From NCBI GenBank assembly GCA_965262975.1, contig OZ253575.1, forward strand, positions 2,530,951-2,594,950: DNA of 64,000 nt. The letters are read 5' to 3'. Below the pieces are notes generated by a model, which was not told where the DNA came from, did not search any database, and was given only the letters and a program-made list of their open reading frames with translations. A program made the position numbers and the translations under genes. Of this stretch, positions 6,508 through 39,247 are shown piece after piece; within the stretch, counting starts at the first letter, position 1, and every line of letters begins with the position of its first letter. The stretch comes from Tepidiformaceae bacterium. GTDB lineage: Bacteria; Chloroflexota; Dehalococcoidia; Tepidiformales; Tepidiformaceae.

Positions 6508-6514
6508 GCGGGGC

Positions 6515-6937: not shown

Positions 6938-7032
6938 GGAGGCAGTGTACCGGAGGAGAGCGCTCCAACGGACTGCTGCGCTCGACTGCTGCGCGCTCGC
7001 GACGCCCGCCTGAGTGGTGCGTTTGAGCGGGT

Positions 7033-7062
7033 GGGGTAATTCGGTAAGGGGGTCGCTAGAGT
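7033..7062 (+). promoter_or_regulatory. Conserved promoter-like box GGGGTAATTC-N14-TAGAGT (copy 1 of 5)
   Basis: GGGGTAATTC ggtaagggggtcgc TAGAGT, then 6 nt (gaggcc) to ATG 7069. Same architecture as sites 17484, 19622, 22052 and 24462. Confidence 0.55.
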
Positions 7063-7068
7063 GAGGCC

Positions 7069-7092
7069 ATGGGGCGAGCATGCGGGCGGTGA
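7069..7092 (+). CDS. Candidate leaderless 7-codon uORF (MGRACGR*) coupled to the downstream gene
   Basis: ATG is 6 nt after TAGAGT. Reading: ATG GGG CGA GCA TGC GGG CGG TGA. The TGA overlaps GTG 7089 as GTGA, in frame with the DUF4177-like ORF. Confidence 0.35.
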   Translation: MGRACGR

Positions 7093-7403
7093 AGTGGGAG
7101 TACGCACTGCTGTACATCTCCGACGAGAAGCCGGCCCGGCGCTGGATTCTGTTCAGCCACGAGCAGGACGCGGCCAGCCTGGAGCGGTACTCCCCCCGCG
7201 CGACGGCCCACACCGCAACCTCCATCCACTTCAATCCGGAGAGGGTGCACACCACCTGGGTACTTGGGTCGCTGGGGGCTGAGGGCTGGGAGATGGTCGG
7301 CGTCGCCCGTGTCGACTCGCTGGAGGCGGCGTGCCTCTACCTGAAGCGGGAGCTGGACGACGACGGCAGGCAGGTGGCCGTCGTGCTGCCGCCGCGGGCC
7401 TGA
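7089..7403 (+). CDS. DUF4177-like small protein
   Basis: ORF track gives 7080..7403 (MRAVKWEY...). GTG 7089 gives MKWEYALLYISDE..., the usual DUF4177 N-terminus, and overlaps the uORF stop as GTGA. ATG 7080 remains possible. The LGAEGWEMVGV motif is typical of the family. Confidence 0.55.
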   Translation: MKWEYALLYISDEKPARRWILFSHEQDAASLERYSPRATAHTATSIHFNPERVHTTWVLGSLGAEGWEMVGVARVDSLEAACLYLKRELDDDGRQVAVVLPPRA

Positions 7404-7410
7404 GCGAAGG

Positions 7411-7785
7411 CTACCGGTTGGCGCCTTCCCCTGCCGCCACGGGCTGGGAGAGGTAGGACGTGAGGGCCGTGGCGATCAGGTAGTTGAGGGAGACACCTTC
7501 GATCTTGGCGCGCAGGGCCGCGCTGGCATGGAGCGACCGGGGTAGGCGCAGGCGGATGTCGCCCGAACGGTCGGAGCCCCAGGGCTTGGGGATGGGGTGG
7601 TCCTCGGCGAGTTCGTGGTCGATCCAGAGGCCCATCGCGACGTTCAGGTTCTCGGCCGCCTCAGCGGCGGTCTCCCCCTCACTGAACACACCGTCAAGCT
7701 CCAGCACGTGGGCCGACCAGTAACCGCTCTTGTCCGGCTGGATGATGCGGTGGTAGGGAAGCTCAAGGTAGTCAGTCGTCTGCAT
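7411..7785 (-). CDS. hicB: HicB-family antitoxin (N-terminal HicB fold + C-terminal RHH/Arc-like), no HicA partner adjacent
   Basis: 124 aa: LPYHRIIQPDKSGYWSAHVLELDGVFSEGETAAEAAENLNVAMGLWIDHELAEDHPIPKP...IRLRLPRSLHASAALRAKIEGVSLNYLIATALTSYL. It lies 35 nt downstream of the ABC ATPase gene. Confidence 0.8.
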   Translation of the reverse strand: MQTTDYLELPYHRIIQPDKSGYWSAHVLELDGVFSEGETAAEAAENLNVAMGLWIDHELAEDHPIPKPWGSDRSGDIRLRLPRSLHASAALRAKIEGVSLNYLIATALTSYLSQPVAAGEGANR

Positions 7786-7820
7786 ATCAGTGACACCGTA
7801 TGCGGTGCCAGCGAGTCGGG

Positions 7821-8714
7821 CTACTCCGGCCTCGACCAGCGGCCTTCGGGGATGTCCTCGGATGGTTCCGGCTCCTCCGGGGGTGGGGGCTCCTCGGATT
7901 CGGCGGGACGGACGCCGAAGTGGCTGGTGTCGGCGCCGATGAGGGAGGGGAGCGACTGGCTCTCCGGGCTCTCGCCCTCGGGCGCTTCGAAGGGAGTGCG
8001 TTCGCGCGACTGCACCCGGCCCCAGACGTCGCCCTTGTGGCCCGTCACGAGGCGGCCGTCCTCCAACTCCTCCACGCGGCTGGCCATCTCCATCACGAGG
8101 CGATCGTGCGTGCAGGTGATGATGGAGACGCCGCGCTCGCGGCAGATGTCGCGGATAAGGGTGAAGACGGCCGTGGCGGTGGCCGAGTCGAGCTCGCCCG
8201 TGGGCTCGTCGGCGAGCACGAGCGTGGGCTCGGTGACGAGCGCGCGGGCGATGGCGACGCGCTGCTGCTCCCCGCCGGAGAGTTCGTAGGGGCGGTGGTG
8301 GGCGCGACGCTCGAGCCCGACCAGCTCCAGCACCTCGCGGGCGCGGGCCGGTCGCGCGCGGTGTACGCCCGAGATGCGCAGGGGCAGCTCCACGTTCTCC
8401 TGGGCGGAGAGCAGGGGGAGGAGCCCGAACGACTGGAAGATGAAGCCCAGCTTCTGGCGGCGAAGGGTGATCAGCTCGGACTCGCGCATCGTGTCGACGC
8501 GCTCGCCGTCGATCTCGACCTCGCCGGAGGTGGGGCGGTCAAGCCCGGCGATAGTGTTCAGCAGGGTGGTCTTGCCCGAGCCGGAGCGCCCGATGAGGGC
8601 GAGGAACTCGCCCGGCTCGACGGAGAGGCTGACATCGCGCACGGCCCAGATCTCTTCCGAGCCGAGTTGGAAGCGGCGGGTGACGTTGCGCAGCTCGATG
8701 CGGGCGCCGGCCAT
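7821..8714 (-). CDS. ABC transporter ATP-binding protein (MacB/LolD-type NBD) with acidic Pro-rich C-terminal tail
   Basis: Walker A GRSGSGKTT, Q-loop, signature [15 protein letters not shown], Walker [14 protein letters not shown]-loop TCTHD. The ~80-aa tail reads ...ESPESQSLPSLIG...ESEEPPPPEEPEPSEDIPEG. The ATG overlaps the upstream gene's stop (ATGA). Confidence 0.93.
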   Translation of the reverse strand: MAGARIELRNVTRRFQLGSEEIWAVRDVSLSVEPGEFLALIGRSGSGKTTLLNTIAGLDRPTSGEVEIDGERVDTMRESELITLRRQKLGFIFQSFGLLPLLSAQENVELPLRISGVHRARPARAREVLELVGLERRAHHRPYELSGGEQQRVAIARALVTEPTLVLADEPTGELDSATATAVFTLIRDICRERGVSIITCTHDRLVMEMASRVEELEDGRLVTGHKGDVWGRVQSRERTPFEAPEGESPESQSLPSLIGADTSHFGVRPAESEEPPPPEEPEPSEDIPEGRWSRPE

Positions 8715-9631
8715 CAGCGTTCCTCCCCGGATACGCGGCGGACGGTGTCGGGCAGCACCTCGATGCGCCCTTCGCCAAGGAAGAGCTTGGCCCGCTCGCT
8801 GATGCTCAGCCGTTCGAGGAACTCGCGCGGCACCTGCAGGCGTCCGGCGGAATCGACGAGCACGTACTCGTCGTGCACGACCTGCGTGACGCCGCCTGCC
8901 TGCTCGACGCGGCGGAAGATCTCCATGCTCGTGCGACCGTCGCGGATGGCGACGACGCGGTTCACGCGGGAGGCGATCTCGGGGTCGTGGGTCACGATGA
9001 TGATGGTGACGCCGTAGCGCGCGTTCAGGTCGCCGAGCACCTCGTAGACGCTGTCGGCGCCGATGGCGTCGAGCTCGCCCGTGGGCTCGTCGGCGAGGAG
9101 GAGGGGCGGGCGGTTGGCGAGCGCCACGGCGATGGAGACGCGCTGCTGCTCGCCGCCCGAGAGTTGCTCGGGGTGGTGGTCGCGGCGATTGCCGAGGCTC
9201 ACGGCGTCGAGCAGCTCGTTGGAGCGCTCGCGCGCGGCGCCTGCCTCCACGCCATCAAGCATGAGCGGCAGCTCAACGTTCTGGGTGGCCGTGAGGTAGG
9301 GGATGAGGTTGCGGCCCGTCTGCTGCCAGATGAAGCCGACGGAGCTGCGGCGGTAGCGAACCATCTCGCCCTCGGTCATGGTCAACAGGTCGCGCCCGCC
9401 AACGAAGGCGCGTCCGGCGCTGGGCTGGTCGAGCCCGGCGAGGATGTTGAGCAGGGTGCTCTTGCCCGAGCCGGAGGCCCCGACGATGGCCATCAACTCG
9501 CCCGCGCGCACCTTCAGGTCGAGCCCGCGGAGGGCGACGACCTCGAGCTCGTCGCTCTTGTGAATCTTGAAGAGATCCTCGCAGACGATGTACGGGGGCG
9601 CTCCGGTCTCGGTGTTGGGGAAGGTTGTCAT
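8714..9631 (-). CDS. ABC transporter ATP-binding protein with AbrB/SpoVT-like C-terminal extension
   Basis: Only the last 305 aa of ORF 8714..11428 are real; ATG at 9631 verified. Sequence: [24 protein letters not shown]...[12 protein letters not shown]...[15 protein letters not shown]...[12 protein letters not shown]...IVTHD. The tail ...[38 protein letters not shown] resembles a swapped-hairpin AbrB-type motif (inference). Confidence 0.92.
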
Positions 9632-9639
9632 GGGGTGTC

Positions 9640-12600
9640 CTAGAGCTCGCCGATGCGCAGGGCGCGATGCAGGGCCAGCCGCGAGTAGAGGCGCGCAAGG
9701 GCGGCCACGGTGGCGATGAAGACGAGGGCGAGCAGGCCGTAAACGGAGAGCACGGTCTCCCAGCTTACCTGCGAAAGGAGGGGTGGGACCACGTCGCTGC
9801 CGTCCTCGGTGAGGGCGATGGCGCCGATCATGAGGCGTCCGAGGGGGAATCCGAGGGCTGTACCGGCGGCCACGCCCGCGATGATCACGAAGAGTTGCTC
9901 GAATCCGACCACCCCCACGATCTGGCGTCCGGAGAAGCCCATCGTGCGGAGGATGGCGAATTCCAGCGAGCGCGTCTGCGCCGCCAGGTAGGAGAAGACG
10001 ATGAAGCCGAGGGCCGTGAGCAGCAGCACCGCCCCGAAGGAGAGGAAGAGGATTCCCTCCCAGCTGGCGGCGATCAGCGGGTCGGAGGATTCGATCGCGA
10101 AGATGGCGGCGCCGTCGTAGACCTCGCGGGCGCGGAAGCCTTGCTCCTCCAGCCACTCGTCCGTGAGCTCTATCCCCTCGACACTTCCCAGCCACACCTC
10201 GTTCACGGCGATGCCGCCGGCCACCCGCGGGATGCCCGCACCGGCGTCCCGGAGGGCGGCGAGATCGGCGACGAGCAGGTGGTCGCGCGGGCCCGGGTAG
10301 AAGCCGGGGAAGAGCTTGAAGGCGCCGGTGATCTTCACCTTGAGCAGCTGGCGGTTTACGCGTACGGGGATGGTGTCGCCGGGGCTGGCCTCGATTGCCT
10401 CCAGGAACGACTCGCTGGCAAGCACGCGCAGCGGTGCGGGCGAGCGGCGCAGGCGCAGTCCCACCGCGGTTACGGAGAAGCTGTCGTAGTTGAAGGAGAT
10501 CTGGACGGCGTAGCGCCCGCGGTCGTTGTCGATGTCGGCGCGCGTGACGGTCGTCTCGGCGGCCCCGGAGGCGCCCGTGATGGACTGGTAGCGGTCGAGC
10601 GATTCGAACGGCTCGATCACGACGGCGTCGGCGGCCCCCCCACCCTCGGGGTAGGCGACAATGTCGTCGACCAGGGCGGTGACGCGTCCGGGGGCGGCGG
10701 CGAAGCGGCGCACGCTGAGGAAGACGGACTCGATTTCCAGCGTCGAATCGAGATCGGGCGGGCGGTCGCGGGGGTTGAAGGGGCGGGTGAGGTCGACGAC
10801 ATAGAGGAGCCAGCCGTCGTCTTCCTCGACCGGGTCGCTCACGAACAGGTACTCGAAGTGGAGGCCGTTCTCGTCGCGCAGGCGAATGCCGGGGCGGGCG
10901 GCGCGGTCGGGCAGGGAGATGCGCGTCCAGAGGCCGAGGGCGCGCGAGCCGGGGGGCACAATGGCGCCGTCGGGCAGGTCCGCGTCCTCGTCGGGCTGAA
11001 GGCTGGCGAGGAGCGAGTCGAGGTCGCCAAAGTCGTCCCGCCAGAAGGCGACCTCGGCGAAGTCTTCGCTCACGCCGAGGAGCTCCGCGGGGGTGGAGCG
11101 CCCGGTGAAGGGGGCGTAGGACACCTCGATGCGGGCGGCCGCGCTGGCGCGGTCGAGCCCGTCGATCGATTCGATGGACTCCTCCAGCCGCTCGGCGGAG
11201 AGGCGCGAAGGCTCGCGGATGTCGACGAGGCGGCCGGGAGCGCCGGCCTCGTAGGCGGCGCGGTCCTCGAAACTGCGGTCGAGCGTGGCGCGGAATCCGG
11301 CGGCGAACATGCCCACGGAGGTTGCCAGGAGGAGCAGCAGGATGAGGCGGCTGTAGTGGAGCGGGCTTCGCACCATGCGCCAGAGGCCGAGCAGGATGGT
11401 GGCCCCGCTCAGGCCCCGCAGCGCCCATGAGGCGACCGCCAGAACGACCGGGAACAGCCGCAGGAAGACGAGCGCGATCATCAGCATGAAGAGCGCGGGC
11501 GAGACCAGCAGGAGCGGGTCGGCGGAGAGGTCGCCGAAGAGGTTCTCGGTTACGAGCGAGCCCCGCTGGCGTAGCTGGTAGAAGAGAAAGGCGCCCACGG
11601 CCACGAGCACGAGGTCGAGGTAGTAGCGCAGGAAGAGCGGCTGCCTGGTGGGCCGGGCGAGGCTCTGCTTGAAGTGAACCATGCTCGCTTCGGAGGCGCG
11701 GTAAGCGGGCCAGAGCAGCGCGACCAGCGCGAGCAGCGCTCCGAGGGCGGCCAAGCCGAACGCCTCGGCGGTGAGCGTCACCTGCAGCAGCTCACCTTGG
11801 CTGAGGTCGGAGAAGGGGGGCGTCGGGCCCAGCAGGCGGATGACGCCCGAGGCCAGCAGCGGCCCGAGGACCACCGCGAAGATGGTGAGCACCGAGCCCT
11901 CGATCAGGTAGACGGTCATGATCTGGCCGAGGCCCGCCCCGCGGCTCTTCAGGAGCGCGATCTCGCCCGCCTGGCGCTCGACCAACATCGTCGCCACCAG
12001 CACCAGGTAGTAGAGCGCGATGCCGACGATGAGCAGCATGAGCGCGAAGAGCGGAAGCCGCGTGAAGAACAGCTTCTCCTGGTACTCGGCGATGACGTCC
12101 ACCAGCTCCGTGTCGAGCGACGACAGCTCCAGCTGCGCGCGGATCTCGCGTTCGAGCGCACGCAGGTTGCGCTCCACCGTCTCGGCGTTGCGGCTGTTGA
12201 CGCGCTCGCGGTCGATGAAGGCGTAGGTCTCGAAGGTGCCGTCGATGGAGGGGAGGTAGGGGGCCAGTACCTCCACGAAGGTGCGCTCGTCGATGACGAA
12301 GGGGAAGGTGGGCCAGCGCGTGCCGTCGACCACGAGGCGGTAGGCGTTGCCGAACCAGTAGTCCTCGGTGGGGTCGGAGGGCTCGAACAGTCCGGCGACG
12401 GTGACTTCGACGGGGTCGACATCGTCGCGCCAGAAGGGGTGGAGGTCGAAGGTGTCGCCCACGCTGATGCCGAGCTGGCGGGCGGCGGTGGCGGCGATCC
12501 AGACTTCGATGCTGGGCCGCAGGGAGGGGTCGGTGGTGGGAGGAGAGGCGGCTGCGGGGCCGCCCTCGACGAGCGTTACGTGGGCGCCGATGTCGGAGAA

Positions 12601-12999
12601 GAAGAGGAAGTGGGCGCGGGCGCGCAGTTCGTCGTCGTCGTCGATGGGCACGCCGGGCTCGGCCAGGAAGAAGGTGGAGGAGCGCGCGTAGACGCCCGTG
12701 TCCTCGATGAGGCTCCCGGCGTAGCGCTGCAAGAGCGTGAAGGTAGCCTCGCGGCGCTCCTTGTAGATGTCGGTCTCGCCAGGCTGGCTGTTACTGATGA
12801 CCTTGAGGTCGAGCTCGAGGGGTTCCTGCTGGCGGAGGGTGAAGCTGAGGCCGAGGTCGCGCACGGCGTCGGAGTAGAGGATGACGCTCGACATGAGGGC
12901 GGAGGCGAGGACCATGCCGAAGATGACGGTGACGAGCAGCCGCCAGTTCGCGAGGCTCCGCTGGGCGACGATGCGCAGGAGGGAGGCAAAGCTGTTCAT
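9640..12999 (-). CDS. Very large ABC transporter permease with two FtsX-type modules (1119 aa)
   Basis: N-terminal TM (LLVTVIFGMVLASALMSSVILY), then large extracytoplasmic regions. There are two FtsX-like 3-4 helix bundles, with EIALLKSRGAGLGQIM and EFAILRTMGFSGRQIV motifs. It sits directly upstream of two NBD genes. Confidence 0.88.
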   Translation of the reverse strand: MNSFASLLRIVAQRSLANWRLLVTVIFGMVLASALMSSVILYSDAVRDLGLSFTLRQQEPLELDLKVISNSQPGETDIYKERREATFTLLQRYAGSLIEDTGVYARSSTFFLAEPGVPIDDDDELRARAHFLFFSDIGAHVTLVEGGPAAASPPTTDPSLRPSIEVWIAATAARQLGISVGDTFDLHPFWRDDVDPVEVTVAGLFEPSDPTEDYWFGNAYRLVVDGTRWPTFPFVIDERTFVEVLAPYLPSIDGTFETYAFIDRERVNSRNAETVERNLRALEREIRAQLELSSLDTELVDVIAEYQEKLFFTRLPLFALMLLIVGIALYYLVLVATMLVERQAGEIALLKSRGAGLGQIMTVYLIEGSVLTIFAVVLGPLLASGVIRLLGPTPPFSDLSQGELLQVTLTAEAFGLAALGALLALVALLWPAYRASEASMVHFKQSLARPTRQPLFLRYYLDLVLVAVGAFLFYQLRQRGSLVTENLFGDLSADPLLLVSPALFMLMIALVFLRLFPVVLAVASWALRGLSGATILLGLWRMVRSPLHYSRLILLLLLATSVGMFAAGFRATLDRSFEDRAAYEAGAPGRLVDIREPSRLSAERLEESIESIDGLDRASAAARIEVSYAPFTGRSTPAELLGVSEDFAEVAFWRDDFGDLDSLLASLQPDEDADLPDGAIVPPGSRALGLWTRISLPDRAARPGIRLRDENGLHFEYLFVSDPVEEDDGWLLYVVDLTRPFNPRDRPPDLDSTLEIESVFLSVRRFAAAPGRVTALVDDIVAYPEGGGAADAVVIEPFESLDRYQSITGASGAAETTVTRADIDNDRGRYAVQISFNYDSFSVTAVGLRLRRSPAPLRVLASESFLEAIEASPGDTIPVRVNRQLLKVKITGAFKLFPGFYPGPRDHLLVADLAALRDAGAGIPRVAGGIAVNEVWLGSVEGIELTDEWLEEQGFRAREVYDGAAIFAIESSDPLIAASWEGILFLSFGAVLLLTALGFIVFSYLAAQTRSLEFAILRTMGFSGRQIVGVVGFEQLFVIIAGVAAGTALGFPLGRLMIGAIALTEDGSDVVPPLLSQVSWETVLSVYGLLALVFIATVAALARLYSRLALHRALRIGEL

Positions 13000-13033
13000 G
13001 AAGCGTCAGGGAAGCGTACAGGAGAGCGCCGTG

Positions 13034-13681
13034 TCATGACTCTCTGCGCGGGGCTGCGGGTCGCACGCGGGCGACGCTGTAGTCGGTTGGGTCGCGGACG
13101 GACTCGTAGTCCGTGAGCTCCAGGCGGTGGCACCAGGTGGAGGGTCTTCGTAGTCGGAGTTCGCTGCCCTTGCCGCTCGACAACCACGCGGCGGTTTCGG
13201 CGCGTTCGCGCCCAAAACGGGTGGCGACGAACTCGAGGGCCGGGAGCAGGTCGGTGTCGGTCGAACAGATGATGCCGGTGTCGTAGGCGCCGTCGATGGC
13301 GCCCGCGACGAAGTCGATTGCGAGCTGCACGTCGATCCCCTTCTCCTCGGCGCGCTGTTCAGGCCAGCGTCGCGGGTACCGCAGGGGGCGGGTGATGACG
13401 ACCGCGCCGGACTGCTCCCAGGCGTGGCACTGGCGTCTATGTGCTCCGTAGGTCTTTGGATCCCTGGTGGCATCTGGTCGACCCGAGTAGACGCGCACTT
13501 GTTCAAGGACGCGGGGCTCGGAGGCAGGGTGGTAGGGGTTCTCGCGACCACAGAGAAGCCTCCCGAGTTCAACTGGGGCGATCTGGCCTACTCGGCGATG
13601 GGACCTGCTCGTCTGGGAGAAGGCACGGGCCCCTTGGTAGACGTTCTGGGCGTCAACGAAGACCGCGACTCGATTGACCAT
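13034..13681 (-). CDS. NYN-domain (LabA/DUF88-like, PIN-fold) putative RNase
   Basis: 215 aa: MVNRVAVFVDAQNVYQGAR...EKGIDVQLAIDFVAGAIDGAYDTGIICSTDTDLLPALEFV. These are the conserved acidic residues of the NYN/LabA fold. No SD; the start codon lies 6 nt after a U-tract. Confidence 0.8.
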   Translation of the reverse strand: MVNRVAVFVDAQNVYQGARAFSQTSRSHRRVGQIAPVELGRLLCGRENPYHPASEPRVLEQVRVYSGRPDATRDPKTYGAHRRQCHAWEQSGAVVITRPLRYPRRWPEQRAEEKGIDVQLAIDFVAGAIDGAYDTGIICSTDTDLLPALEFVATRFGRERAETAAWLSSGKGSELRLRRPSTWCHRLELTDYESVRDPTDYSVARVRPAAPRRES

Positions 13682-13686
13682 CGGCT

Positions 13687-13786
13687 CAAGAAAAACCCCC
13701 GCCAGTGCGCCACAAGTGACGGACGACGGGGAACATTCACCCTAACGGGCACTACCCAGTGTGTGCTGCCGTCCAGCATTTGTCAA
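13687..13786 (-). repeat. Module 1: TTGACA box, 28 nt, then a 66-nt hairpin/U-tract unit abutting the NYN start (candidate leader/sRNA with intrinsic terminator)
   Basis: Minus strand: TTGACA (13786-13781), 28 nt, then GUGCCCGUUAGGGUGAAUGUUCCCCGUCGUCCGUCACUUGUGGCGCACUGGCGGGGGUUUUUCUUG (13752-13687). CCCCGUCG pairs with UGGCGGGG and is followed by UUUUUCUU. It is a direct repeat of module 2. Confidence 0.75.
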
Positions 13787-13885
13787 GGGCATAAGTTGGT
13801 CTCCCGAGAAGTAAACGAACGACGGGCGCTCGGGCGGCATGAGGAGCCTGCGAAGCCGCCCAGCGAAAGAACGAGGGGGTGTGGA

Positions 13886-13986
13886 CAAGAAAAACCCTCG
13901 CCAGTGCGCCAGCAAATAGAGAACGACGGGGAACAGTGGCCCTATCGGGCGCCCCCCTTCTCTGGTCTCGCTGGAGACGGTGTCAA
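13886..13986 (-). repeat. Module 2: TTGACA box, 28 nt, then a 67-nt hairpin/U-tract unit, 200 bp upstream of module 1
   Basis: Minus strand: TTGACA (13986-13981), 28 nt, then GCGCCCGAUAGGGCCACUGUUCCCCGUCGUUCUCUAUUUGCUGGCGCACUGGCGAGGGUUUUUCUUG (13952-13886). The stem arms and 5' end are conserved with module 1, while the apical loop and the 28-nt spacer are diverged. Confidence 0.75.
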
Positions 13987-14046
13987 CGCCACGCGTCGTA
14001 GGTGGGGGAGCGCTTGAGGGGCGGAGACCGCTACCCTTGTGCGGCT

Positions 14047-17397: not shown

Positions 17398-17483
17398 GAG
17401 AGCGCTTCGCTGTCGCCGCTGAGTGGAGCGCTCGGCGCTGCGCGCGGCTGAGTTGGGGCGCAGAGCAATTTCTCGAAACGGAC

Positions 17484-17513
17484 GGGGTAATTCGAGGGTT
17501 TGGGCTCTAGGGT
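17484..17513 (+). promoter_or_regulatory. Conserved promoter-like box GGGGTAATTC-N14-TAGGGT (copy 2 of 5)
   Basis: GGGGTAATTC gagggtttgggctc TAGGGT, then 6 nt (gagccc) to ATG 17520, implying a leaderless mRNA. Confidence 0.55.
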
Positions 17514-17519
17514 GAGCCC

Positions 17520-18830
17520 ATGATGCGTCGGGCTCGTGCCTGTCTCCCGTTGTTCGCCTTCGTCGCTTCCCTCGCAGCGATGGCGTGCGGCGGCGAGACG
17601 ATCCCTCCCGCCCGCGAGTCCGGCGCATCAGCCCCCACCGCTACTTCGGCCACCCTGGCGGCGGAGCCGACGCGGACGGCCACTCCGACCGCTGTGCTCA
17701 CTGCCACACCCAGCCCCAGCGCCTCGCCCACGCCGACGCCGCCGACCGCCACCGCGACGCCCACGCCCGAACCGACGCCGGGGCGGACGGCCACTCCGAC
17801 CCCCTCGCCCGCGGCCAGGCCCACACCTGATCCGACTCCGGCCGCCACGGCCACACCGATATCTGCGGTGACGCCGACGCCCGAACTGACGCCTGAGCCG
17901 CCAGCCATCGAATACACGCCACTCACGTTCGGGGAGTCCCGTGCGCTGCCTGCGGGGACGACGCTCCATGTCCGGGAGTACTTCGGCTGCCATGGACCTC
18001 AGAATTGGCTCAGGGGAGTCGCCACGGACGAGGGCGAACTGCTGTGGGATTACCCGCTTACCGAACTGCCTCGGAACGACGACGCGGAGTGGGGGGACCG
18101 GGACCTGGTTGGTGTGAGTGCGAGCGGCCAAACCCTTGCGGCCTGGGTCTGCGAGCGGGGAGTGTGCAGGTCTCTCGGCGGCGTTGTGAGTGAGGATGAC
18201 GTCTCCTCGCTCTGGGTCTCGGGCGATGGAGGCGAGACGTGGGAGAGGTGGGGTGAGTTTCCGGAGGGGTGGATTTCGGTCGTCACCGACGACGATGTAG
18301 CCGTCTATTCGGACGATCCTCAACATCGGGCATGGTGGTTCCGCTCAGGGGAAGAAGTGTTGCCTCCAGAGGATCTTCTGAACCCACGCATCTGGGGGTG
18401 GCGAGCGGTCGGAGACCGCACCGAGTCCATCTGGGGAGACAGCGAGGGCACGGTCCTTGTGTCCACTTCTGGCGAGAGTCTTCCCCCCAGGCCTCAGGGC
18501 TTCGGCAGCGTGGCTACCCTGGCTGATGGGTCCATCCTCTGGAGCAGGGTCGAGCCCCGGAGCCGGGGGGAACGGGACCTGTTCCTGCACATGAACGACC
18601 AGGGCACAGGTTTGGCGGCGTATTCGTGGGAGGGCCCGAGGCCCCTGGTGCTCATCGACCAGTTGGACGAGGACTGGTACCTGTTTGTGGGGTTCCTTGG
18701 AGGTTCCTCATGTGGAGCGGTGGGCAGGACGGTGCTCGTGGACTTCAGCACGGGTACGGTGCACACGATCCCCGGGCTCGACGACAGGGCGCGCTTCGTT
18801 CCCTACGCCGCCCGGCCCGCGCCCGACTAG
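17520..18830 (+). CDS. Secreted/lipid-anchored protein with Pro/Thr-rich linker and uncharacterised C-terminal domain
   Basis: 436 aa. Signal peptide MMRRARACLPLFAFVASLAAMAC-GG, then ~110 aa of PT-rich linker (TPSPSASPTPTPPTATATPTPEPTP...). The following W/D-rich globular region (LWVSGDGGETWERWGEFPEGW...) matches no family I recognise. Confidence 0.75.
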   Translation: MMRRARACLPLFAFVASLAAMACGGETIPPARESGASAPTATSATLAAEPTRTATPTAVLTATPSPSASPTPTPPTATATPTPEPTPGRTATPTPSPAARPTPDPTPAATATPISAVTPTPELTPEPPAIEYTPLTFGESRALPAGTTLHVREYFGCHGPQNWLRGVATDEGELLWDYPLTELPRNDDAEWGDRDLVGVSASGQTLAAWVCERGVCRSLGGVVSEDDVSSLWVSGDGGETWERWGEFPEGWISVVTDDDVAVYSDDPQHRAWWFRSGEEVLPPEDLLNPRIWGWRAVGDRTESIWGDSEGTVLVSTSGESLPPRPQGFGSVATLADGSILWSRVEPRSRGERDLFLHMNDQGTGLAAYSWEGPRPLVLIDQLDEDWYLFVGFLGGSSCGAVGRTVLVDFSTGTVHTIPGLDDRARFVPYAARPAPD

Positions 18831-19549
18831 CGGGCGCCCGGGGGGGCGACGAGGACGGCCTGGGCGCTGGCGGGGCTGGCGCCGGCGGGGGCGCGCGTGG
18901 CGATGCGGTCGCCGCCGGTGATGGGAGCGTCGTAGGGCTCGAGGAAGAAGAGGGACACGCCCGCGAAGAGCTGCACGGTGATGGGTCCGTCGGGACCGCT
19001 GAGGGTGATGTCGGCGCCGCCTTCAGTCGCGCCGGGGGTGACGCTCTCCACCCGGCCCCAGAGAACGGGGCGGTGGTTCGGGTTGCTCAGGAGCTCCAGA
19101 CCGGTGAAGCCCGCCGCCGAGCGCGCGAGTCCGTCGGCGAGGGGGGCGCCCGGCTCGCGGATGACGATGACCTGGCGGATGACGTAATTGCGCACGGGGT
19201 CGCCTTCGCCGGTGAACGTGAGCCACTGGCCGCGCTCGATGCCGGAGGGCAGTCCGGGCACGAGCGCCTCGAGCACGACGCCTGGGGGGAGGGCGACGGT
19301 GAGCGGCTCCCCCTCGGTGTTGGCAGACAGGAGCGTGAGCGTCGCGCCGTTGATCTCGCGCACGTCGAAGACGGCGGCGGGGCGGGCCGGCTGGGGCGTC
19401 ACGAACGGCCCCGCCTCCGGGGGCGCGTCGCTGCCGGCCGATTGCGAGACGATGAAGGCCACGGCCCCACCCCCGACTAGCAGCGCCAGCACAACGACGA
19501 TCGCGGCCACGGGCGCGAGCAGCCGCCGTCGCAAGGGGGCAGGCGGCAT
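18827..19549 (-). CDS. Membrane-anchored hypothetical protein
   Basis: ORF 18827..19666. ATG 19549 (verified) gives MPPAPLRRRLLAPVAAIVVVLALLVGGGAVAFIV (signal anchor), followed by an extracytoplasmic domain of unknown family. Confidence 0.6.
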   Translation of the reverse strand: MPPAPLRRRLLAPVAAIVVVLALLVGGGAVAFIVSQSAGSDAPPEAGPFVTPQPARPAAVFDVREINGATLTLLSANTEGEPLTVALPPGVVLEALVPGLPSGIERGQWLTFTGEGDPVRNYVIRQVIVIREPGAPLADGLARSAAGFTGLELLSNPNHRPVLWGRVESVTPGATEGGADITLSGPDGPITVQLFAGVSLFFLEPYDAPITGGDRIATRAPAGASPASAQAVLVAPPGAR

Positions 19550-19621
19550 CAGGGGCTCTTCGATAGCCACGCGCCCATGATAGATGGCGCGCGGCGCGGA
19601 TGGCGGGACCGGGGGGGGGAT

Positions 19622-19651
19622 GGCGTAATTCGGGGCTTCCCCTGTTAGGGT
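19622..19651 (+). promoter_or_regulatory. Conserved promoter-like box GGCGTAATTC-N14-TAGGGT (copy 3 of 5)
   Basis: GGCGTAATTC ggggcttcccctgt TAGGGT, then 6 nt (cgcgcc) to GTG 19658. Confidence 0.55.
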
Positions 19652-19657
19652 CGCGCC

Positions 19658-19681
19658 GTGACACACAGGGGCGTCCTGTGA
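19658..19681 (+). CDS. Candidate leaderless 7-codon uORF (MTHRGVL*) coupled by GUGA to NHL paralogue 1
   Basis: GTG ACA CAC AGG GGC GTC CTG TGA. The TGA overlaps the main-ORF GTG 19678. A CACAGG-ggcgt-CCTGTG hairpin spans the uORF and contains the main start codon. Confidence 0.4.
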   Translation: MTHRGVL

Positions 19682-22035
19682 GGAAGCTGATCGTCGCCGC
19701 GCTGGCCGCGCTGCTCGGCGTGGTGGTGCTGGCGGTAGGCGCCGCCCAGGGGAGTGTGACGGCCAACGTCGAGGTGCGCGTCTGGCAGAACGTCCGGGAC
19801 GACCTCGACATCAGCATCAGCGCCCGTCCCCAGGGTGGCTCGTGGCGGACCCTGGGGGCGGTGGATCTGCCGCTCGACGACGGCGTCAGCGCAACGGGGT
19901 CCCGCTACGGCGACATCGCGCTCGACGTTCCCCTCCGAACCGGGGGTTCTGTAGCCACCATTGAGGTGCGCGTCTGGCAGAACGTCGGGAACCCCAGGCT
20001 CATCTACATCAGCGCCCGGCACGCGGGAGGCTTGTGGAGCACGCTCGGCACTGTCCGCATGCCGATGGACGAGATCAGCCTCGCGGGCCGCTTCCGCTTT
20101 AGCGACATCACCCTCGAGGTTCCGCTTCCCGAGGGGGAGGTCACGACGCTCGTTGGGCGCCAGGGCTTCTGGGGGTACCAGGATGGCAGCGGTACAGCCG
20201 TGCTCTTCGGGGGCAGGGCCGGGGCCGCCCGGATTGTCGAGTTGGCGGCCCACCCCGACGGCCGGGTCATCATTTCGGACAGGTTCAGTAACGCGATTCG
20301 CGAGCTCTCGACCGATGGCGTGGTCACGACGATCGCGGGCGGCATTGGCTATGGGGACGACGATGGCCCCGGCTCAGTCGCGCAGTTCAGCGGGCCCGAC
20401 GATCTCGCCGTCGATGCCGACGGGAACATCTACGTAGCCGACCGGGGCAACGAATTGATCCGCAAGATCACGCCCGATGGCGCCGTGTCCACGATTGCGG
20501 GAGGTGGGCAGGGGGTCGGCGGGGGCCCTGCCCTGGAAGCGGACCTCGACCAGCCGCGCGGGGTTGCGCTCGATGGCTCGGGGAACCTGTACATCCTGGA
20601 GAAGCATCGAATCTTGCTCCTCTCGCCGGAAGGCCTCCTCTCGACGGTCGCGGGAGGAGGGGGGCAGGAACAGGTTGATGGCCCGAGTGAGCGGGCTCAG
20701 TTCGCCCACCTGCATGACATCGACGTGGACGACGCCGGCAACCTCTACGTGATCGACATCGACGATGGGGCGAATACCGAGTCCGCATCAATCCGCAAGG
20801 TCGATGCGAACGGCACGGTCAGCACCCTTCTCTTCAGCAAGCCTCCGAGCCTTGGCGGCCTGCTGGCCTATCCGAACGGTCTTGCGGTAGCGGGCGACGG
20901 GACCGTGTTCGTGGCGAACTCGGGGCGCCACCAGATCGTGAGGCTGACTGCCGAGGGAGAGCTGCGGGGGATCGCCGGAACGGGCGCGGAGGGTTCAGCC
21001 GATGGGCCCGCGGGGACGGCCACGTTCTACCGGCCGAAGTCGCTCGACATCATGCCGGATGGTTCGCTCGTCGTGTTCGACCAGGACGGCACCGTCATTC
21101 GCCGGATCACGCCTGCCGAGGAGGGGTTCCCGCTCGGCACTGTTGCCCTCGCGGAAGGTGAGCAGACCCCGCGGATCGAGGGCGTGGCGGTGAGCGCCTT
21201 TGCCCGCAGCCCGTTCCTCCTCCCAATTGACCTGGCCCGCACCGAAGATGGCTCCATCTTCGTCGGCGACAACAATGATGGCGTCTGGCGGGTCACACCG
21301 GGTAGAAGGTTCGTCGCCCTGGCGGGCGAGAACGGGATGGGCTTCAGCGACGGTCCCGCGGATGAGGCCGAGTTCAGCTCGCCAGAAGGGATCGTCGTCG
21401 ATGGCGACGGCAACATCCTGCTGGCCGACTACGGGAACCGGGCTATCCGCCAGATCGCGCCCGACGGCGCCGTCACGACGGTCCACACGTTCGGGAAGAA
21501 CCCCCATCTGCTGGACTACGACAGCGACGGCAACCTCCTGGTTCTCCTCCGTGGCGGGATTGGCGGGGACGAGATCGTGCGCTTCAGCCCCGACGGCGCC
21601 AGGTCGACGGTCGCCACGCCCCGGTTCGACGCCATCTCGGGCATGGGCGTGAGCCCCGACGGTGAGCTCTGGCTCATAGGCACGGACTACCTGTCCGGCA
21701 CGACGATCGTGAGGCGTGCGAGTAATGGCGACTTCACGACCGTGCTCGAGAGTGGCACGGGCCGGTACGGAGGCCTGTTCTCCATCCAGGTGCGAGGCGT
21801 CGACTTCTCGCCCGACGGCATGGCCTACGTGACGGACTCCAAGTACGGACGCATCCTCAGGATCGCTCCCGACGGCACCGTAGCGACGGTGCTCGACCGG
21901 GAGCAGTTCGGCGGTTCCGCTGACTTCACGCCGCGGGGGCTCGTGGTCACCTCAAGTGGCCTTCTGTTCGTTACCAGCGGAGGGTTCCACCCCTCGCAGG
22001 GTACGGTCTGGCAGATCACGCTCCCGGACGAGTAG
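19678..22035 (+). CDS. Secreted protein: 2x 'VRVWQ' N-terminal module + NHL-repeat beta-propellers (paralogue 1)
   Basis: ORF 19600..22035. GTG 19678 gives the signal peptide MRKLIVAALAALLGVVVLAVGAAQG. Modules: VEVRVWQNVRDDLDISISARPQGGSWRTLGAVDLPLDDGVSATGSRYGDIALDVPL and IEVRVWQNVGNPRLIYISARHAGGLWSTLGTVRMPMDE... About 12 NHL-type repeats follow, e.g. PDDLAVDADGNIYVADRGNELIRKITPDGAVSTIAGG. Confidence 0.85.
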   Translation: MRKLIVAALAALLGVVVLAVGAAQGSVTANVEVRVWQNVRDDLDISISARPQGGSWRTLGAVDLPLDDGVSATGSRYGDIALDVPLRTGGSVATIEVRVWQNVGNPRLIYISARHAGGLWSTLGTVRMPMDEISLAGRFRFSDITLEVPLPEGEVTTLVGRQGFWGYQDGSGTAVLFGGRAGAARIVELAAHPDGRVIISDRFSNAIRELSTDGVVTTIAGGIGYGDDDGPGSVAQFSGPDDLAVDADGNIYVADRGNELIRKITPDGAVSTIAGGGQGVGGGPALEADLDQPRGVALDGSGNLYILEKHRILLLSPEGLLSTVAGGGGQEQVDGPSERAQFAHLHDIDVDDAGNLYVIDIDDGANTESASIRKVDANGTVSTLLFSKPPSLGGLLAYPNGLAVAGDGTVFVANSGRHQIVRLTAEGELRGIAGTGAEGSADGPAGTATFYRPKSLDIMPDGSLVVFDQDGTVIRRITPAEEGFPLGTVALAEGEQTPRIEGVAVSAFARSPFLLPIDLARTEDGSIFVGDNNDGVWRVTPGRRFVALAGENGMGFSDGPADEAEFSSPEGIVVDGDGNILLADYGNRAIRQIAPDGAVTTVHTFGKNPHLLDYDSDGNLLVLLRGGIGGDEIVRFSPDGARSTVATPRFDAISGMGVSPDGELWLIGTDYLSGTTIVRRASNGDFTTVLESGTGRYGGLFSIQVRGVDFSPDGMAYVTDSKYGRILRIAPDGTVATVLDREQFGGSADFTPRGLVVTSSGLLFVTSGGFHPSQGTVWQITLPDE

Positions 22036-22051
22036 CGCTTCGGAGGTGGGT

Positions 22052-22081
22052 GGGGTAATGCCGATGCTCGTCTGCTAGGGT
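22052..22081 (+). promoter_or_regulatory. Conserved promoter-like box GGGGTAATGC-N14-TAGGGT (copy 4 of 5)
   Basis: GGGGTAATGC cgatgctcgtctgc TAGGGT, then 7 nt (cgcgccc) to GTG 22089. Confidence 0.55.
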
Positions 22082-22088
22082 CGCGCCC

Positions 22089-22112
22089 GTGACACATGGG
22101 GGCGCCCTGTGA
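22089..22112 (+). CDS. Candidate leaderless 7-codon uORF (MTHGGAL*) coupled by GUGA to NHL paralogue 2
   Basis: GTG ACA CAT GGG GGC GCC CTG TGA. The TGA overlaps the main-ORF GTG 22109. Same length and position as the 19658 uORF, and a CACA(U)GGG/CCCUGUG hairpin is retained. Confidence 0.4.
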   Translation: MTHGGAL

Positions 22113-24595
22113 GGAGGCTGATCGTCGCGGCGGTGGCGGCGGTGCTCGGCCTGGCGGTGGTGGCGACTGCTGCGGCGCAGGGTGAGACGACGGCGCGGAT
22201 CGAGGTGCGCGTCTGGCAGGACGTGGGGGACGAACTCGACATCTACATCAGCGCGCGCCCCGAGGACGGCGACTGGATGGGGCTGGGGACGATCCCGTTG
22301 CCGCTGGACGATGGAGTGAGCTCCACGGGCCGGTTCCGCTACGGCGAATTCGCGGTCGATGTGCCCCTGCCCGGCCGGGCGGCGCCGGCAACGGTCGAGG
22401 TGCGCGTCTGGCAGGACGTGGGGAACAGCGCAAGTTTCTACATCAGCGCGCGCCCGGCGGAGGGTGACTGGAGCAGGCTGGGGACGATTCCGCTGCTGCT
22501 GGATGACGGGGTGAGCTCCGTGGGGTTCCGCTACGGCGATATCAGCCTCGAGGTGCCCGTCCCGCCCAGCGAAGTTTCGACCCTCGCGGGCTGGCCCGGT
22601 GTGGAGGGGTACGTTGATGGGCAGGGTGATGAGGCGCGATTCGGGGCGTTCGGCTTCCTCCTCCAGCACCAGCCCTGGGCCCTCGGGCTGGCCGCTGATC
22701 GGGACGGGAGCGTGGTTGTAGCGGACTACTACAACAATGCCATCCGCCGGATTGCGCCGGAGGGGACGGTTACGACGGTCGCCGGCGCCGGCCAGGGCAT
22801 GCTGGACGGCGAAGCGGCGCTTGCCCGGTTCTCCCAGCCGCGTGATGTAGCCGTGGACCCGCAGGGGACCATCTATGTGGCCGACGAGGGGAACAACCGC
22901 ATCCGCAAGATCACTGCGGACGGGGTGGTCACCACCGCCGCCGGAACCGGCCAGTCCGGGTACGGTGACGGCCCTGCCGAAGAGGCCCTCTTTGAATCCC
23001 CGCTCGGCGTTGCCCTGGGGCCGTTGGGCGACCTCTACATCATCGAGCGGACGCGGATCAGGCGCCTTTCGCCCTCGGGCCAGGTCTCGACGTTCGCCGG
23101 TGGCGCCAGACGCGGCACGCGCGATGGCTGGAGAGAGAACGCCCAATTCTCCTCCCTGCAGGACATCGAGATCGACGACTCGGGCAACATTTTCGTCATC
23201 AATGTCAATGACAGCTTCGGGGATATGACCGAGTACTCATCCATCCGCCTCATCGACACCAGCGGTACCGTCAGCACCCTCCTGCGAAGCGAGGGGCTGA
23301 ACCTTGGGGGGGCGCTGGGCTTCCCGGGAGGCATTGCGCCCGCGGGCGACGGCGGTGTCTACCTGTCCAACAGCGGCCTCAACCAGATCATCCGGGTCAC
23401 CCGCACGGGCGAGATCGAGGGCGTGGCCGGGACGGGAGAGGGTGGCTACCTGAACGGGCTCCGAAGCGAGGCGCGCTTCAGCCTTCCGGGGTCGATCGCG
23501 GTCTCGTCCACTGGCGTCCTGTTCGTGGCCGACCAGGCGGCCACGGTCGTTCGTGCGATTGATCTGGGTGGCCGAGGGCTTTCCGTGGGCCCCGTGCCCC
23601 TTGCGCAGCACGAGGGACCCCCGCGGATTCCCGGTGTTGTGGTCGCGGCGGTCCCGCTGCCGGAATCTTTCTTCCCCGTCACGATGGTGCTGGACCCCGA
23701 CGGCAACCTCGTGACATCCGCCCAGTTCCGCCACGAGATCCAGCAGCTTGCCCCGGACGGGACGGTCACGACCCTGGCGGGCGGAAACGGCGAGGGGTTC
23801 CTGGATGGCCCGGGCGACGAGGCGCAGTTCTCTCAGCCCCGCCTGCTTGCCGTGGATGCGGAGGGCGCCGTCTTCGTGCTGGACACGGGCAATCAAGCCA
23901 TCCGCCGCGTCGCGCCCGATGGGACGGTCACAACGGTCCTTGCCCGGCTCTCCCTGAGAGTCTGGGCTATCGAGGATATGGCTGTGGATCAGGACGGCAA
24001 CCTGCTCATCGTCGAGGGCAGCAGCATCTGGCGCCTCCGGGACGGAGCGCTCTCGCCTGCCGGCGACGCCCAGGGGCATTGGATAAAGGCCATTGACGTG
24101 GACGAGAGCGGACAGATCCACGTCGCGGCCGGGTTTACGGGCCTCGTGGGCAGGATCGATGAGACTGGCGGCTTCACCACGCTGCTGGAGGCTCGACCGG
24201 GATGGTACGGCGGCGTGCTTTCCGGCTTCTCGCCAGGCATCGCGGCGGGGAGCGACGGCACGGTCTACGTGCTCGACTTCGACTACCAGAGGGTGCTGAG
24301 CATCTCCCCGGAGGGGGAGGTCGCAATCGTGGTCGACCGCGAGTCGTTCCCCGGGGTGCGAACCTTCTATCCAACGACCATCCTGTTGACCCCCGAGGGC
24401 GATCTGCTCTTGGGTGACGGCGGCAGGATCTGGAGGGTCACGCTCCCGGAGCGGCCGTGGTGGGGTAATTCCCCTGGTGGTCTGCTAGGGTCGCGCGATG
24501 CCGCCTGCGGGGAGCGTTGCGAGAGGGCTGGTCATCCTGGCGGTGGCGGCCGTGCTCGGGCTGGAGGTGGTGGCGGGCGTCGGGGCGCAGGGTGA
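22109..24595 (+). CDS. Secreted 2x 'VRVWQ' + NHL-repeat protein (paralogue 2) with read-through C-terminal extension
   Basis: 828 aa: MRRLIVAAVAAVLGLAVVATAAAQG, IEVRVWQDVGDELDIYISARPEDGDWMGLGTIPLPLDDGVSSTGRFRYGEFAVDVPLP, and a second module. NHL repeats, e.g. PRDVAVDPQGTIYVADEGNNRIRKITADGVVTTAAG. Paralogues end at ...ITLP(D/E)E*. This copy continues RVTLPERPWWGNSPGG... for ~58 aa, across the next promoter box and the next gene's start. Confidence 0.8.
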   Translation: MRRLIVAAVAAVLGLAVVATAAAQGETTARIEVRVWQDVGDELDIYISARPEDGDWMGLGTIPLPLDDGVSSTGRFRYGEFAVDVPLPGRAAPATVEVRVWQDVGNSASFYISARPAEGDWSRLGTIPLLLDDGVSSVGFRYGDISLEVPVPPSEVSTLAGWPGVEGYVDGQGDEARFGAFGFLLQHQPWALGLAADRDGSVVVADYYNNAIRRIAPEGTVTTVAGAGQGMLDGEAALARFSQPRDVAVDPQGTIYVADEGNNRIRKITADGVVTTAAGTGQSGYGDGPAEEALFESPLGVALGPLGDLYIIERTRIRRLSPSGQVSTFAGGARRGTRDGWRENAQFSSLQDIEIDDSGNIFVINVNDSFGDMTEYSSIRLIDTSGTVSTLLRSEGLNLGGALGFPGGIAPAGDGGVYLSNSGLNQIIRVTRTGEIEGVAGTGEGGYLNGLRSEARFSLPGSIAVSSTGVLFVADQAATVVRAIDLGGRGLSVGPVPLAQHEGPPRIPGVVVAAVPLPESFFPVTMVLDPDGNLVTSAQFRHEIQQLAPDGTVTTLAGGNGEGFLDGPGDEAQFSQPRLLAVDAEGAVFVLDTGNQAIRRVAPDGTVTTVLARLSLRVWAIEDMAVDQDGNLLIVEGSSIWRLRDGALSPAGDAQGHWIKAIDVDESGQIHVAAGFTGLVGRIDETGGFTTLLEARPGWYGGVLSGFSPGIAAGSDGTVYVLDFDYQRVLSISPEGEVAIVVDRESFPGVRTFYPTTILLTPEGDLLLGDGGRIWRVTLPERPWWGNSPGGLLGSRDAACGERCERAGHPGGGGRARAGGGGGRRGAG
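24462..24491 (+). promoter_or_regulatory. Conserved promoter-like box GGGGTAATTC-N14-TAGGGT (copy 5 of 5)
   Basis: GGGGTAATTC ccctggtggtctgc TAGGGT, then 6 nt (cgcgcg) to ATG 24498 (leaderless main ORF). Confidence 0.55.
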
Positions 24596-39013: not shown

Positions 39014-39029
39014 TGTTTCACGTGAAACA
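39014..39029. other. parS centromere-like site 1 (perfect)
   Basis: TGTTTCACGTGAAACA is a 16/16 match to the chromosomal parS consensus TGTTNCACGTGAAACA. Confidence 0.9.
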
Positions 39030-39130
39030 ATGAAGCCTGCTCGGCGCAGGCCCTGGGGTCCGAGAGGCGGGAATCCTCCGGTGAAGGGTGGGAAGCAGGT
39101 GCCGGTCGCCGTTTCGCATGAAGGCCCGAA

Positions 39131-39146
39131 TGTTTCACGTGAAACA
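39131..39146. other. parS site 2 (perfect)
   Basis: TGTTTCACGTGAAACA, 117 bp after site 1. The flanks are also similar (AATGAAGCCTGCTCGGCGCAGCC vs AATGGGACTTGCTCAGCACAGCC). Confidence 0.9.
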
Positions 39147-39247
39147 ATGGGACTTGCTCAGCACAGCCTCTAACGACGCGGAGGTGCGAGTCCATGGGTG
39201 AGGGTTGGAGGGCGGGAGTTGATCACCGTTCCGTACGATGCCGCGAT

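Follow-up and report, generated by a model that had tools for sequence, protein, structure and literature searches.

The 64-kb window of Tepidiformaceae DNA analysed here (the whole stretch, with positions counted from its first letter) carries five copies of a promoter-like element in which a conserved decamer, termed the box, lies at a rigid distance upstream of a -10-like hexamer. According to Pfam and open reading frame (ORF) analysis, the gene order of the window starts with groES/groEL, a CLC channel gene, HicB, two genes for FtsX-like permeases and the gene for a PT-rich lipoprotein; these are followed by a minus-strand membrane-protein gene, four tandem NHL paralogues (19678-29524), a tRNA, Slt, rnpA-yidD-yidC, parAB and the nuo operon. 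The pattern GGSGTAATKC-N14-TAGRGT matches exactly five times, always on the plus strand, at 7033, 17484, 19622, 22052 and 24462, just as an original prediction made from the letters of this stretch had reported, while 100 dinucleotide-preserving shuffles of the window yield no match. Allowing three mismatches adds no further site in the window. The core GTAATTC occurs four times on the two strands together, each time inside a box, which agrees with the prediction that no other copy lies between genes; TAG[AG]GT occurs ten times, five of them with a box attached. Only one further decamer in the window comes within one mismatch of the box; this GGGGTAATGC, at 38917, is internal to yidD and lacks a -10. 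Because the G+C content (GC) of the window is 69%, the AT-rich core of the box is conspicuous, and since an Rfam search of the window returned only tRNA, the box does not lie within a known RNA.

Promoter 1 (7025-7062, like all five on the plus strand) comprises gagcgggt (7025-7032), the box GGGGTAATTC (7033-7042), a 14-nt spacer ending in cGc, which supplies G-14, and the -10 hexamer TAGAGT (7057-7062). Promoter 2 (17476-17513) joins aaacggac to GGGGTAATTC (17484-17493), 14 nt and TAGGGT (17508-17513), and carries about 20 nt upstream of its TAATTC an AT-rich AATTTC that looks like an UP element. In promoter 3 (19614-19651), which is divergent from the minus-strand membrane-protein gene at 18827-19570, ggggggat is followed by GGCGTAATTC (19622-19631), 14 nt ending in TGt and TAGGGT (19646-19651). 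Promoter 4 (22044-22081) consists of ggtgggt, GGGGTAATGC (22052-22061), 14 nt ending in TGc and TAGGGT (22076-22081), and promoter 5 (24454-24491), for which an orthologous site exists in the Tepidiformaceae chromosomal locus L021, of ccgtggt, GGGGTAATTC (24462-24471), 14 nt ending in TGc and TAGGGT (24486-24491). As had been noted, three of the sites precede NHL paralogues and two precede unrelated genes. When the five sites are aligned, their flanks have nothing in common except between paralogues; the leaders of the sites at 19622 and 22052 are alike, and these two promoters were therefore duplicated along with their genes. The prediction also placed a start codon 6-7 nt beyond each hexamer. 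An ATG or GTG does stand there at all five sites, but it is the start of the gene only at 17484 (ATG 17520) and 24462 (ATG 24498); at 7033, 19622 and 22052 it opens a 7-codon ORF instead of the main gene.

Promoter architecture

A position table built from 33 non-redundant promoters, anchored on the box, revealed an element longer than first described: a 19-bp asymmetric block, RRRCGGRY-GGGGTAATTC-S, is conserved from -44 to -26. Conservation extends to positions that were free in the search pattern, namely purines at -44 to -42, C-41 (24/33), G-40 and G-39 (31/33 each), R-38, Y-37 and S-26, and, next to the hexamer, T-15 (17/33), G-14 (29/33) and C-13 (20/33), while the information content is about zero upstream of -45 and over most of the spacer. 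In about 70 sites the box covers positions -36 to -27; about 60 of them have a 14-nt spacer and about 10 a 15-nt one. Secondary sites of the same loci, which were not chosen by the search pattern, show that the box tolerates the variants GGGGAAATTC, GGCGTAATTC, AGGGTAATTC and GGCGGAATTC; the hexamers of these sites are TAAGGT, TACGGT, TATGGT, TATCGT and TACCCT. Among 71 decamers within one mismatch of the box in the window and 45 high-GC loci, 63 are followed at 14-15 nt by nAnnnT. An ATG or GTG stands 6-7 nt after the hexamer in about 60 of 72 sites, a distance that fits initiation on a predicted 5'-terminal start codon.

The window hexamers, TAGGGT or TAGAGT, conform to the sigma-70 -10 pattern TAnnnT with A-11 and T-7, and TAGRRT is the classical -10 of high-GC Gram-positive bacteria. 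The -10 is of the extended type, with TGn in three and G-14 in four of the five window sites. At 16-18 bp, where a sigma-70 -35 would be sought, the sequence reads GGTAAT, GGGTAA or GGGGTA, with at most two of six matches to TTGACA, which upholds the earlier view that the upstream element is not the housekeeping -35. By these features the box promoters are predicted sigma-70-type extended -10 promoters carrying a 19-bp asymmetric element in place of a -35. The TTGACC-N18-TAGCAT that had been pointed out before the Slt gene is indeed present, and the minus-strand membrane-protein gene has its own conserved -35-less promoter, catcTATCAT-N6-GTG (19582-19568). Since both canonical and -35-less promoters exist in the clade, the box is a special addition and not its general -35. 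A scan for consensus promoters and terminators returned no site in 6000-25999 and is uninformative in DNA of 69% GC.

Several other descriptions of the element were tried and rejected. A SigB/SigF-type reading (GTTT..GGGTAT) fails on the hexamer, in which GGGT is not conserved (GAGT, AGGT, CGGT and TCGT occur) whereas T-12 and A-11 are. Direct repeats of the WalR or PhoB type were discarded because the two sub-motifs, CGG and GTAATTC, are unlike. An inverted repeat, GAAATTCCC-N9-GGGGTAATTC, appears in only two gene classes, where an UP-like, AT-rich element or, for class B, a box-like promoter of divergent orientation is the better explanation. At two class-B lipoprotein promoters, in L014 (minus strand, offset 2155) and L051 (plus strand, about 3194), a box-like AGGGAATTTC-N14-TAGACT lies on the opposite strand; it may be a divergent box promoter that has one AT-rich region in common with its partner. 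The GGGGTA string also resembles what we take to be the NarL heptamer, a likeness noted as a lead.

Distribution of the box and the genes behind it

One genome per species (185,579 species, 596 Gb) was scanned with GGGGTAATTC-N14-TAGGGT. The pattern matched 91 stretches, about half of them from metagenome-assembled genomes of Tepidiformaceae, Dehalococcoidia and Chloroflexota with 65-73% GC; the remainder were single hits in unrelated taxa, as expected by chance. A scan of metagenome DNA gave 91 hits, of which only about eight are real. Altogether the same box at the same spacing occurs about 60 times in roughly 20 Tepidiformaceae/Dehalococcoidia genomes. Most sites outside the window were ascertained with a pattern that fixes both the box and the -10, and the unbiased evidence consists of the flanks, the secondary sites and the promoters of the regulator genes described below. 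In the high-GC loci the box is always upstream of a gene start and oriented to it, and every site falls between genes or at the end of one and faces a start codon. The box thus appears, from its distribution, to be a promoter class specific to Tepidiformaceae and related Dehalococcoidia within the Chloroflexota.

The genes behind the box belong to unrelated classes. Orthologues of the PT-rich lipoprotein gene, in at least 21 loci with a near-identical promoter, form one of them. They are joined by two classes of lipoproteins of about 134 aa, by NHL, leucine-rich repeat (LRR) and RCC1 repeat proteins, many of which have a common N-terminal 'VRVWQ' domain, by a class A penicillin-binding protein (PBP), small membrane proteins and orphan lipoproteins, and by GerE/LuxR helix-turn-helix (HTH) proteins with a transmembrane segment. 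By eye, the 134-aa lipoproteins seemed to have a LysM-like C-terminus, but Pfam did not confirm it. The globular domain of the PT-rich orthologues is only 40-45% identical, and their promoters are almost identical from -60 to +20; the promoters being conserved beyond the protein, selection acts on the promoter itself. The proposal of a regulon promoter serving mostly exported proteins holds and gains from the conservation of the box before unrelated genes in about 20 related genomes. The 107-aa protein encoded behind promoter 1 has no visible signal peptide.

A candidate regulator and competing mechanisms

The only regulator genes found behind the box encode proteins with a GerE HTH and a transmembrane segment, in loci L040 and L064 and in the metagenomic loci L097 and L169. 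Homologues were collected with the L040 protein as query, chosen by protein similarity alone, and their contigs were then fetched. A perfect (C)CGGT-GGGGTAATTC precedes the regulator gene in 12 of 12 lineages at the same distance from the ATG, although the proteins are 37-86% identical overall, have three different C-terminal domains and come from genomes with a GC of 0.63-0.69. In each of these promoters a spacer of 14 nt (15 in one) separates box and hexamer, and the true ATG comes 6-8 nt after the hexamer. The hexamers drift (CACCGT, GAGGAT, CACCAT, TAACGT, CAGGAT, TATCTT, TACCTT, TACCCT, TACGGT and TAGGGT), and only A-11 and T-7 are kept in all twelve, mostly with a TG upstream. An invariant box combined with a weak and drifting -10 is the pattern expected of an activator-dependent promoter rather than of a single sigma factor reading both elements.

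The N-terminal 80 residues of the regulator are nearly invariant and consist of an RGRP AT-hook core flanked by arginines, followed by the GerE domain. R11-G12-R13-P14 is invariant in ten sequences with R or K before it, and residues 1-13 have a predicted local distance difference test (pLDDT) score below 50; PF00196 matches the GerE/LuxR domain at 45.2 and 58.6 bits against a cut-off of 23.5. The recognition helix, SYDTVKYHVSNMLSKA, is identical across lineages, and both it and RGRP are invariant despite an overall identity of 37-58% and swapped C-terminal domains. In the AlphaFold model a disordered AT-hook precedes a confident four-helix domain (22-74), a poorly modelled stretch (79-141) and a folded C-terminal domain; a hydrophobic run at about 85-112 was read by eye as a membrane helix. 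Only the DNA-binding domain has Foldseek matches, the best being LiaR, VraR, spr1814, ComA, DosR, GerE and NarL, with TMt values of 0.76-0.94 for the DNA-binding domains of GerE, NarL, DosR, LiaR and VraR. Foldseek found no fold in the Protein Data Bank for the C-terminal domain, no curated NCBIfam family matched the architecture above its cut-off, and a literature search found no paper describing the architecture or the box motif. A profile search with the N-terminal domain returned mostly GerE proteins of 100-146 aa. Metagenomes contain hundreds of such GerE-domain proteins of about 100-146 aa (P0053-P0172), with 45-60% identity to the DNA-binding domain of the regulator; they may be unrelated LuxR solos or else members of the regulator family reduced to HTH and transmembrane segment.

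We propose that the box is an activator site that replaces the -35 and is probably read by this autoregulated GerE/transmembrane regulator, a reading to which we assign a probability of about 0.55. A sigma-A-type holoenzyme would read the extended -10 (T-15 G-14 n T-12 A-11 n n G T-7), and transcription would begin 6-7 nt beyond it, in most cases on the first base (A or G) of a start codon at the 5' end of the mRNA. The -44 to -26 element would serve as the docking site for an activator that touches RNA polymerase, as for MalT at the MalT box. The most likely reader would be a membrane-anchored one-component regulator made up of an RGRP AT-hook, a GerE/LuxR domain, one transmembrane helix and a variable extracytoplasmic domain. 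Its HTH may contact the G-rich bases of the box from the major groove and its AT-hook the adjacent TAATT from the minor groove, with the outer domain sensing the envelope. A composite reader of this kind would explain the asymmetric site and the invariant TAATT inside a G-run in a 70% GC genome. The regulator would activate its own gene, as the position of the box before that gene suggests, together with roughly 10 promoters per genome, serving lipoproteins, beta-propeller/LRR surface proteins and a class A PBP. That the site activates rather than represses we infer from the single-base-pair phasing and the weak hexamers. A wider version of the proposal, in which a novel membrane-anchored regulator family replaces -35 recognition at a composite site and governs an autoregulated envelope regulon throughout Tepidiformales, several targets being translated by way of leaderless 7-codon ORFs that overlap the gene as GTGA, is tentative and falls somewhat short of an even chance.

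Several considerations weigh against the proposed activator and its reader. The start sites, binding and expression at all these promoters are predicted from DNA sequence, and variation inside the box and the -10 is known only from the secondary sites and the regulator promoters. A tblastn search found no regulator homologue in the window or the 8-kb loci, and the gene was not placed in the window's genome or in the complete Tepidiformaceae genomes that supply most sites. From a perfect box before the regulator gene it follows that the gene belongs to the regulon, but not that the encoded protein is the reader. Domains of the GerE family mostly bind as dimers to inverted repeats, whereas the box site is asymmetric, and for a protein tethered to the membrane about 10 sites on the chromosome are less easily reached.

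The rigid spacing and the asymmetry of the element would also suit a dedicated group 2 or group 3 alternative sigma factor with region 3, for which the box would be the -35 and which would read TAnnGT as well, the GerE/transmembrane regulator then being merely a target. G-8 is unusually constant in box promoters compared with TATCAT, TAGCAT and TACAGT elsewhere in the clade, and a small regulon is typical of such factors. We nevertheless consider this unlikely: the 19-bp conserved block exceeds the contact of sigma region 4, a single sigma should constrain both elements where the 12 regulator promoters keep a perfect box and only A-11 and T-7 of the hexamer, and a sigma gene was seen neither behind a box nor in the fetched loci. 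An extracytoplasmic function (ECF, group 4) sigma, with the box as the -35 of an envelope-stress regulon, draws some appeal from the envelope and exported proteins encoded behind the box, from an upstream element at a rigid distance and from GAAAC just upstream at some sites. ECF sigmas have no region 3, the part that reads the TG of an extended -10, and the hexamer here is TAnnGT with A-11/T-7 and an extended TG, not of the CGT type; because of this, and because no sigma gene was found, an ECF factor is very improbable. The original prediction had suggested looking for a sigma/anti-sigma pair; no autoregulated one was found behind any of the roughly 70 boxes, and phmmer with RpoE and SigW seeds found no ECF sigma in the window and 45 loci (413 kb), a search that covered stretches of only about 8 kb per site. 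A PhoB-like gene near two class-D loci reflects conserved synteny only. Between the two mechanisms suggested at the outset, the evidence thus favours a class-II-type activator site over an ECF sigma, given the extended -10, the failure to find a sigma gene behind any box or in any locus, and a box that stays invariant while the -10 drifts.

The box could also be an operator whose repressor occludes the -35 region of promoters that run on the extended -10 alone. An extended -10 needs no -35, the clade has -35-less leaderless promoters such as the TATCAT-N6-GTG at 19582-19568 on the minus strand, and a site overlapping the -35 could block RNA polymerase. A repressor, however, would have no need for single-base-pair phasing to the -10 across unrelated promoters, and the poor hexamers of the regulator genes (CACCGT, GAGGAT) fit dependence on an activator, so that we rate the operator as improbable. 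Negligible in our estimate is the explanation that the sites resemble each other only because of gene duplication or as parts of a dispersed repeat, and do not act as promoters. Three of the five sites do precede tandem NHL paralogues, and the leaders at 19622 and 22052 are alike, but between gene classes the flanks past -45 and the spacers are unrelated, and in about 20 genomes unrelated genes lie behind the box. A dispersed repeat unrelated to gene starts, which the original prediction had raised against itself, is not what was found: the sites point at start codons, and similarity does not continue past the motif into both flanks.

Among known systems the MalT box is the nearest parallel we considered. 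MalT has a LuxR-type DNA-binding domain and binds an asymmetric decamer, GGGGA(T/G)GAGG, whose 5' end lies at -34.5/-35.5 and which overlaps the -35 (PMC7567727). The box of Tepidiformaceae is likewise an asymmetric G-rich decamer that starts with GGGG(A/T), overlaps or replaces the -35 and has its 5' end at about -35/-36, and it too is probably read by a LuxR/GerE-type activator domain, the link here being one of association in 12/12 lineages. Its 3' half, AATTC, differs from the KGAGG of the MalT boxes of E. coli and Klebsiella; the upstream direct-repeat sites of MalT promoters are not seen, only the AT-rich AATTTC in two gene classes; and the regulon consists of envelope proteins instead of maltodextrin use. 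MalT is a cytoplasmic STAND ATPase, whereas the candidate is an 80-aa AT-hook and GerE domain on the membrane, in which neither Pfam nor the model shows an ATPase domain. The absence of a STAND ATPase and of repeated sites and the different 3' half-site place the box outside the MalT system.

The MarA/SoxS marbox, the PhoB pho box and the SARP repeats (8 bp from the -10) are class II sites that recruit RNA polymerase at a fixed distance. The box element resembles them in its asymmetry, its size of about 20 bp and its place over, or instead of, the -35, and differs in having no internal direct repeat, CGG and GTAATTC being dissimilar; no AraC- or OmpR-family gene was found behind the box. Promoters of the ECF factors sigma-E, sigma-W and sigma-M share the rigid two-block layout before envelope genes and a regulator tied to a membrane sensor, but the box promoters have a sigma-70-like -10 with TG, no AAC motif in the -35 and no sigma autoregulated from the box. 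WhiB7 of Actinobacteria, a soluble Fe-S protein of the WhiB type, has its AT-hook at the C-terminus and lacks an HTH. Like the candidate, it is an RGRP AT-hook regulator associated with an AT-rich patch near or in the -35 of sigma-A promoters in a high-GC genome; unlike it, the candidate carries its AT-hook N-terminal to a GerE HTH and is membrane-anchored. ToxR, TcpP and CadC also combine a cytoplasmic DNA-binding domain, one transmembrane helix and an outer sensor and activate near the -35, but with OmpR-type winged helices and direct repeats in place of a GerE four-helix domain and AT-hook. LiaR and VraR, to whose solved structures the DNA-binding domain comes closest (39-46% identity across some 60 residues), control envelope regulons as well; they are two-component proteins with receiver domains that bind inverted repeats, whereas the candidate family has no receiver domain.

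To our knowledge, almost nothing is known of transcription control in Chloroflexota, and a literature search found no paper on any Tepidiforma promoter. The envelope of the lineage is unusual, with peptidoglycan, an S-layer and unexplained surface complexes (PMC10284905). Extended -10 promoters at which an activator site takes over from the -35, the mechanism class proposed here, are already known, and the advance is not a new principle. It lies in a promoter model precise enough for testing at the level of single bases, a regulon of surface proteins in a lineage with such an envelope, and a concrete candidate regulator of unusual architecture for which cultured Tepidiforma strains exist, which opens envelope transcription control in Chloroflexota to direct test.

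Predicted leaderless upstream ORFs and neighbouring genes

The start codons next to the hexamers at 7033, 19622 and 22052 open predicted leaderless upstream ORFs (uORFs) of seven codons on the plus strand: MGRACGR (7069-7092), whose TGA at 7090-7092 overlaps GTG 7089 as GTGA, MTHRGVL (19658-19681), whose TGA overlaps the NHL1 GTG at 19678 in the same manner, and MTHGGAL (22089-22112), whose TGA does so with the NHL2 GTG at 22109. Each of the overlapped GTGs is in frame with the main gene. Matching leaderless uORFs were also seen in loci L055, L061, L074, L084 (two sites), L042 and L170. At orthologous NHL promoters of other genomes the 7-codon length and the GTGA overlap are kept while the peptide differs (MTHRGVL versus MPRGGGA), and one lipoprotein class has a 19-codon uORF that ends in an ATGA overlap. 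These overlaps suggest termination-reinitiation coupling on putatively leaderless mRNAs and would make these genes a clean case from nature of coupling between a leaderless uORF and the gene that follows.

Promoter 1 is followed on the plus strand by the gene for a conserved Tepidiformaceae protein of about 104 aa that belongs to no known family (7089-7403). It is annotated from ATG 7080 (107 aa), but since homologues begin with MKWEY its start is probably GTG 7089. The label 'DUF4177-like' given earlier to 7080-7403 could not be sustained: the 107-aa protein has no Pfam hit even at E<=1, and its 18 homologues have no precomputed Pfam domain. A 100% identical match to it was found on one 3.81-Mb contig.

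The PT-rich lipoprotein gene (17520-18830, plus strand) is predicted to be leaderless and encodes a protein that starts MMRRARA..MACGG and has a C-terminal domain of unknown family, for which a metagenome scan with alignment returned no relatives. Exact-protein look-ups of the window's GroEL and PT-rich protein gave no match. In the window (14002-18830) and in loci L013, L032, L055, L061, L073, L074, L083 and L086, the PT-rich lipoprotein gene always lies directly 3' of the gene for an FtsX-like permease of about 1130 aa (with a conserved ..RTE-stop), and still has its own strong-looking promoter, an arrangement that suggests a functional link between permease and lipoprotein. The minus-strand gene at 18827-19570, which is predicted to be leaderless, encodes a conserved membrane protein of about 247 aa without a Pfam or NCBIfam family; over at least 17 related loci it is 70-80% identical and is always flanked by the PT-rich lipoprotein gene on one side and the first NHL gene on the other.

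All four NHL paralogues lie on the plus strand. NHL1 (19678-22035) begins with the signal peptide MRKLIVAALAA and is 88% identical to a protein encoded in L021. NHL2 (22109-24595) no longer has the stop codon found in its relatives (..VTLPDE-TAG in NHL1 and L021; window 24430-24595), and its ORF extends by about 45 codons, taking in promoter 5 and, in another reading frame, the first 98 nt of NHL3. NHL3 (24498-27047) starts at a predicted leaderless ATG. NHL4 (27044-29524) has no box and is joined to NHL3 by a GTGA stop/start overlap (27044-27047), the same type of junction as between uORFs and genes; the two are presumably co-transcribed.

Further downstream, at 39014-39633, the 16-bp palindrome TGTTTCACGTGAAACA occurs five times, four times exactly and once with three mismatches, against 0.02 expected. 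The array lies within 650 bp of non-coding DNA, with rnpA-yidD on one side and a PQQ/BamB-like gene plus yidC on the other, about 4 kb from parAB, and is a candidate replication-origin or regulator-binding array.

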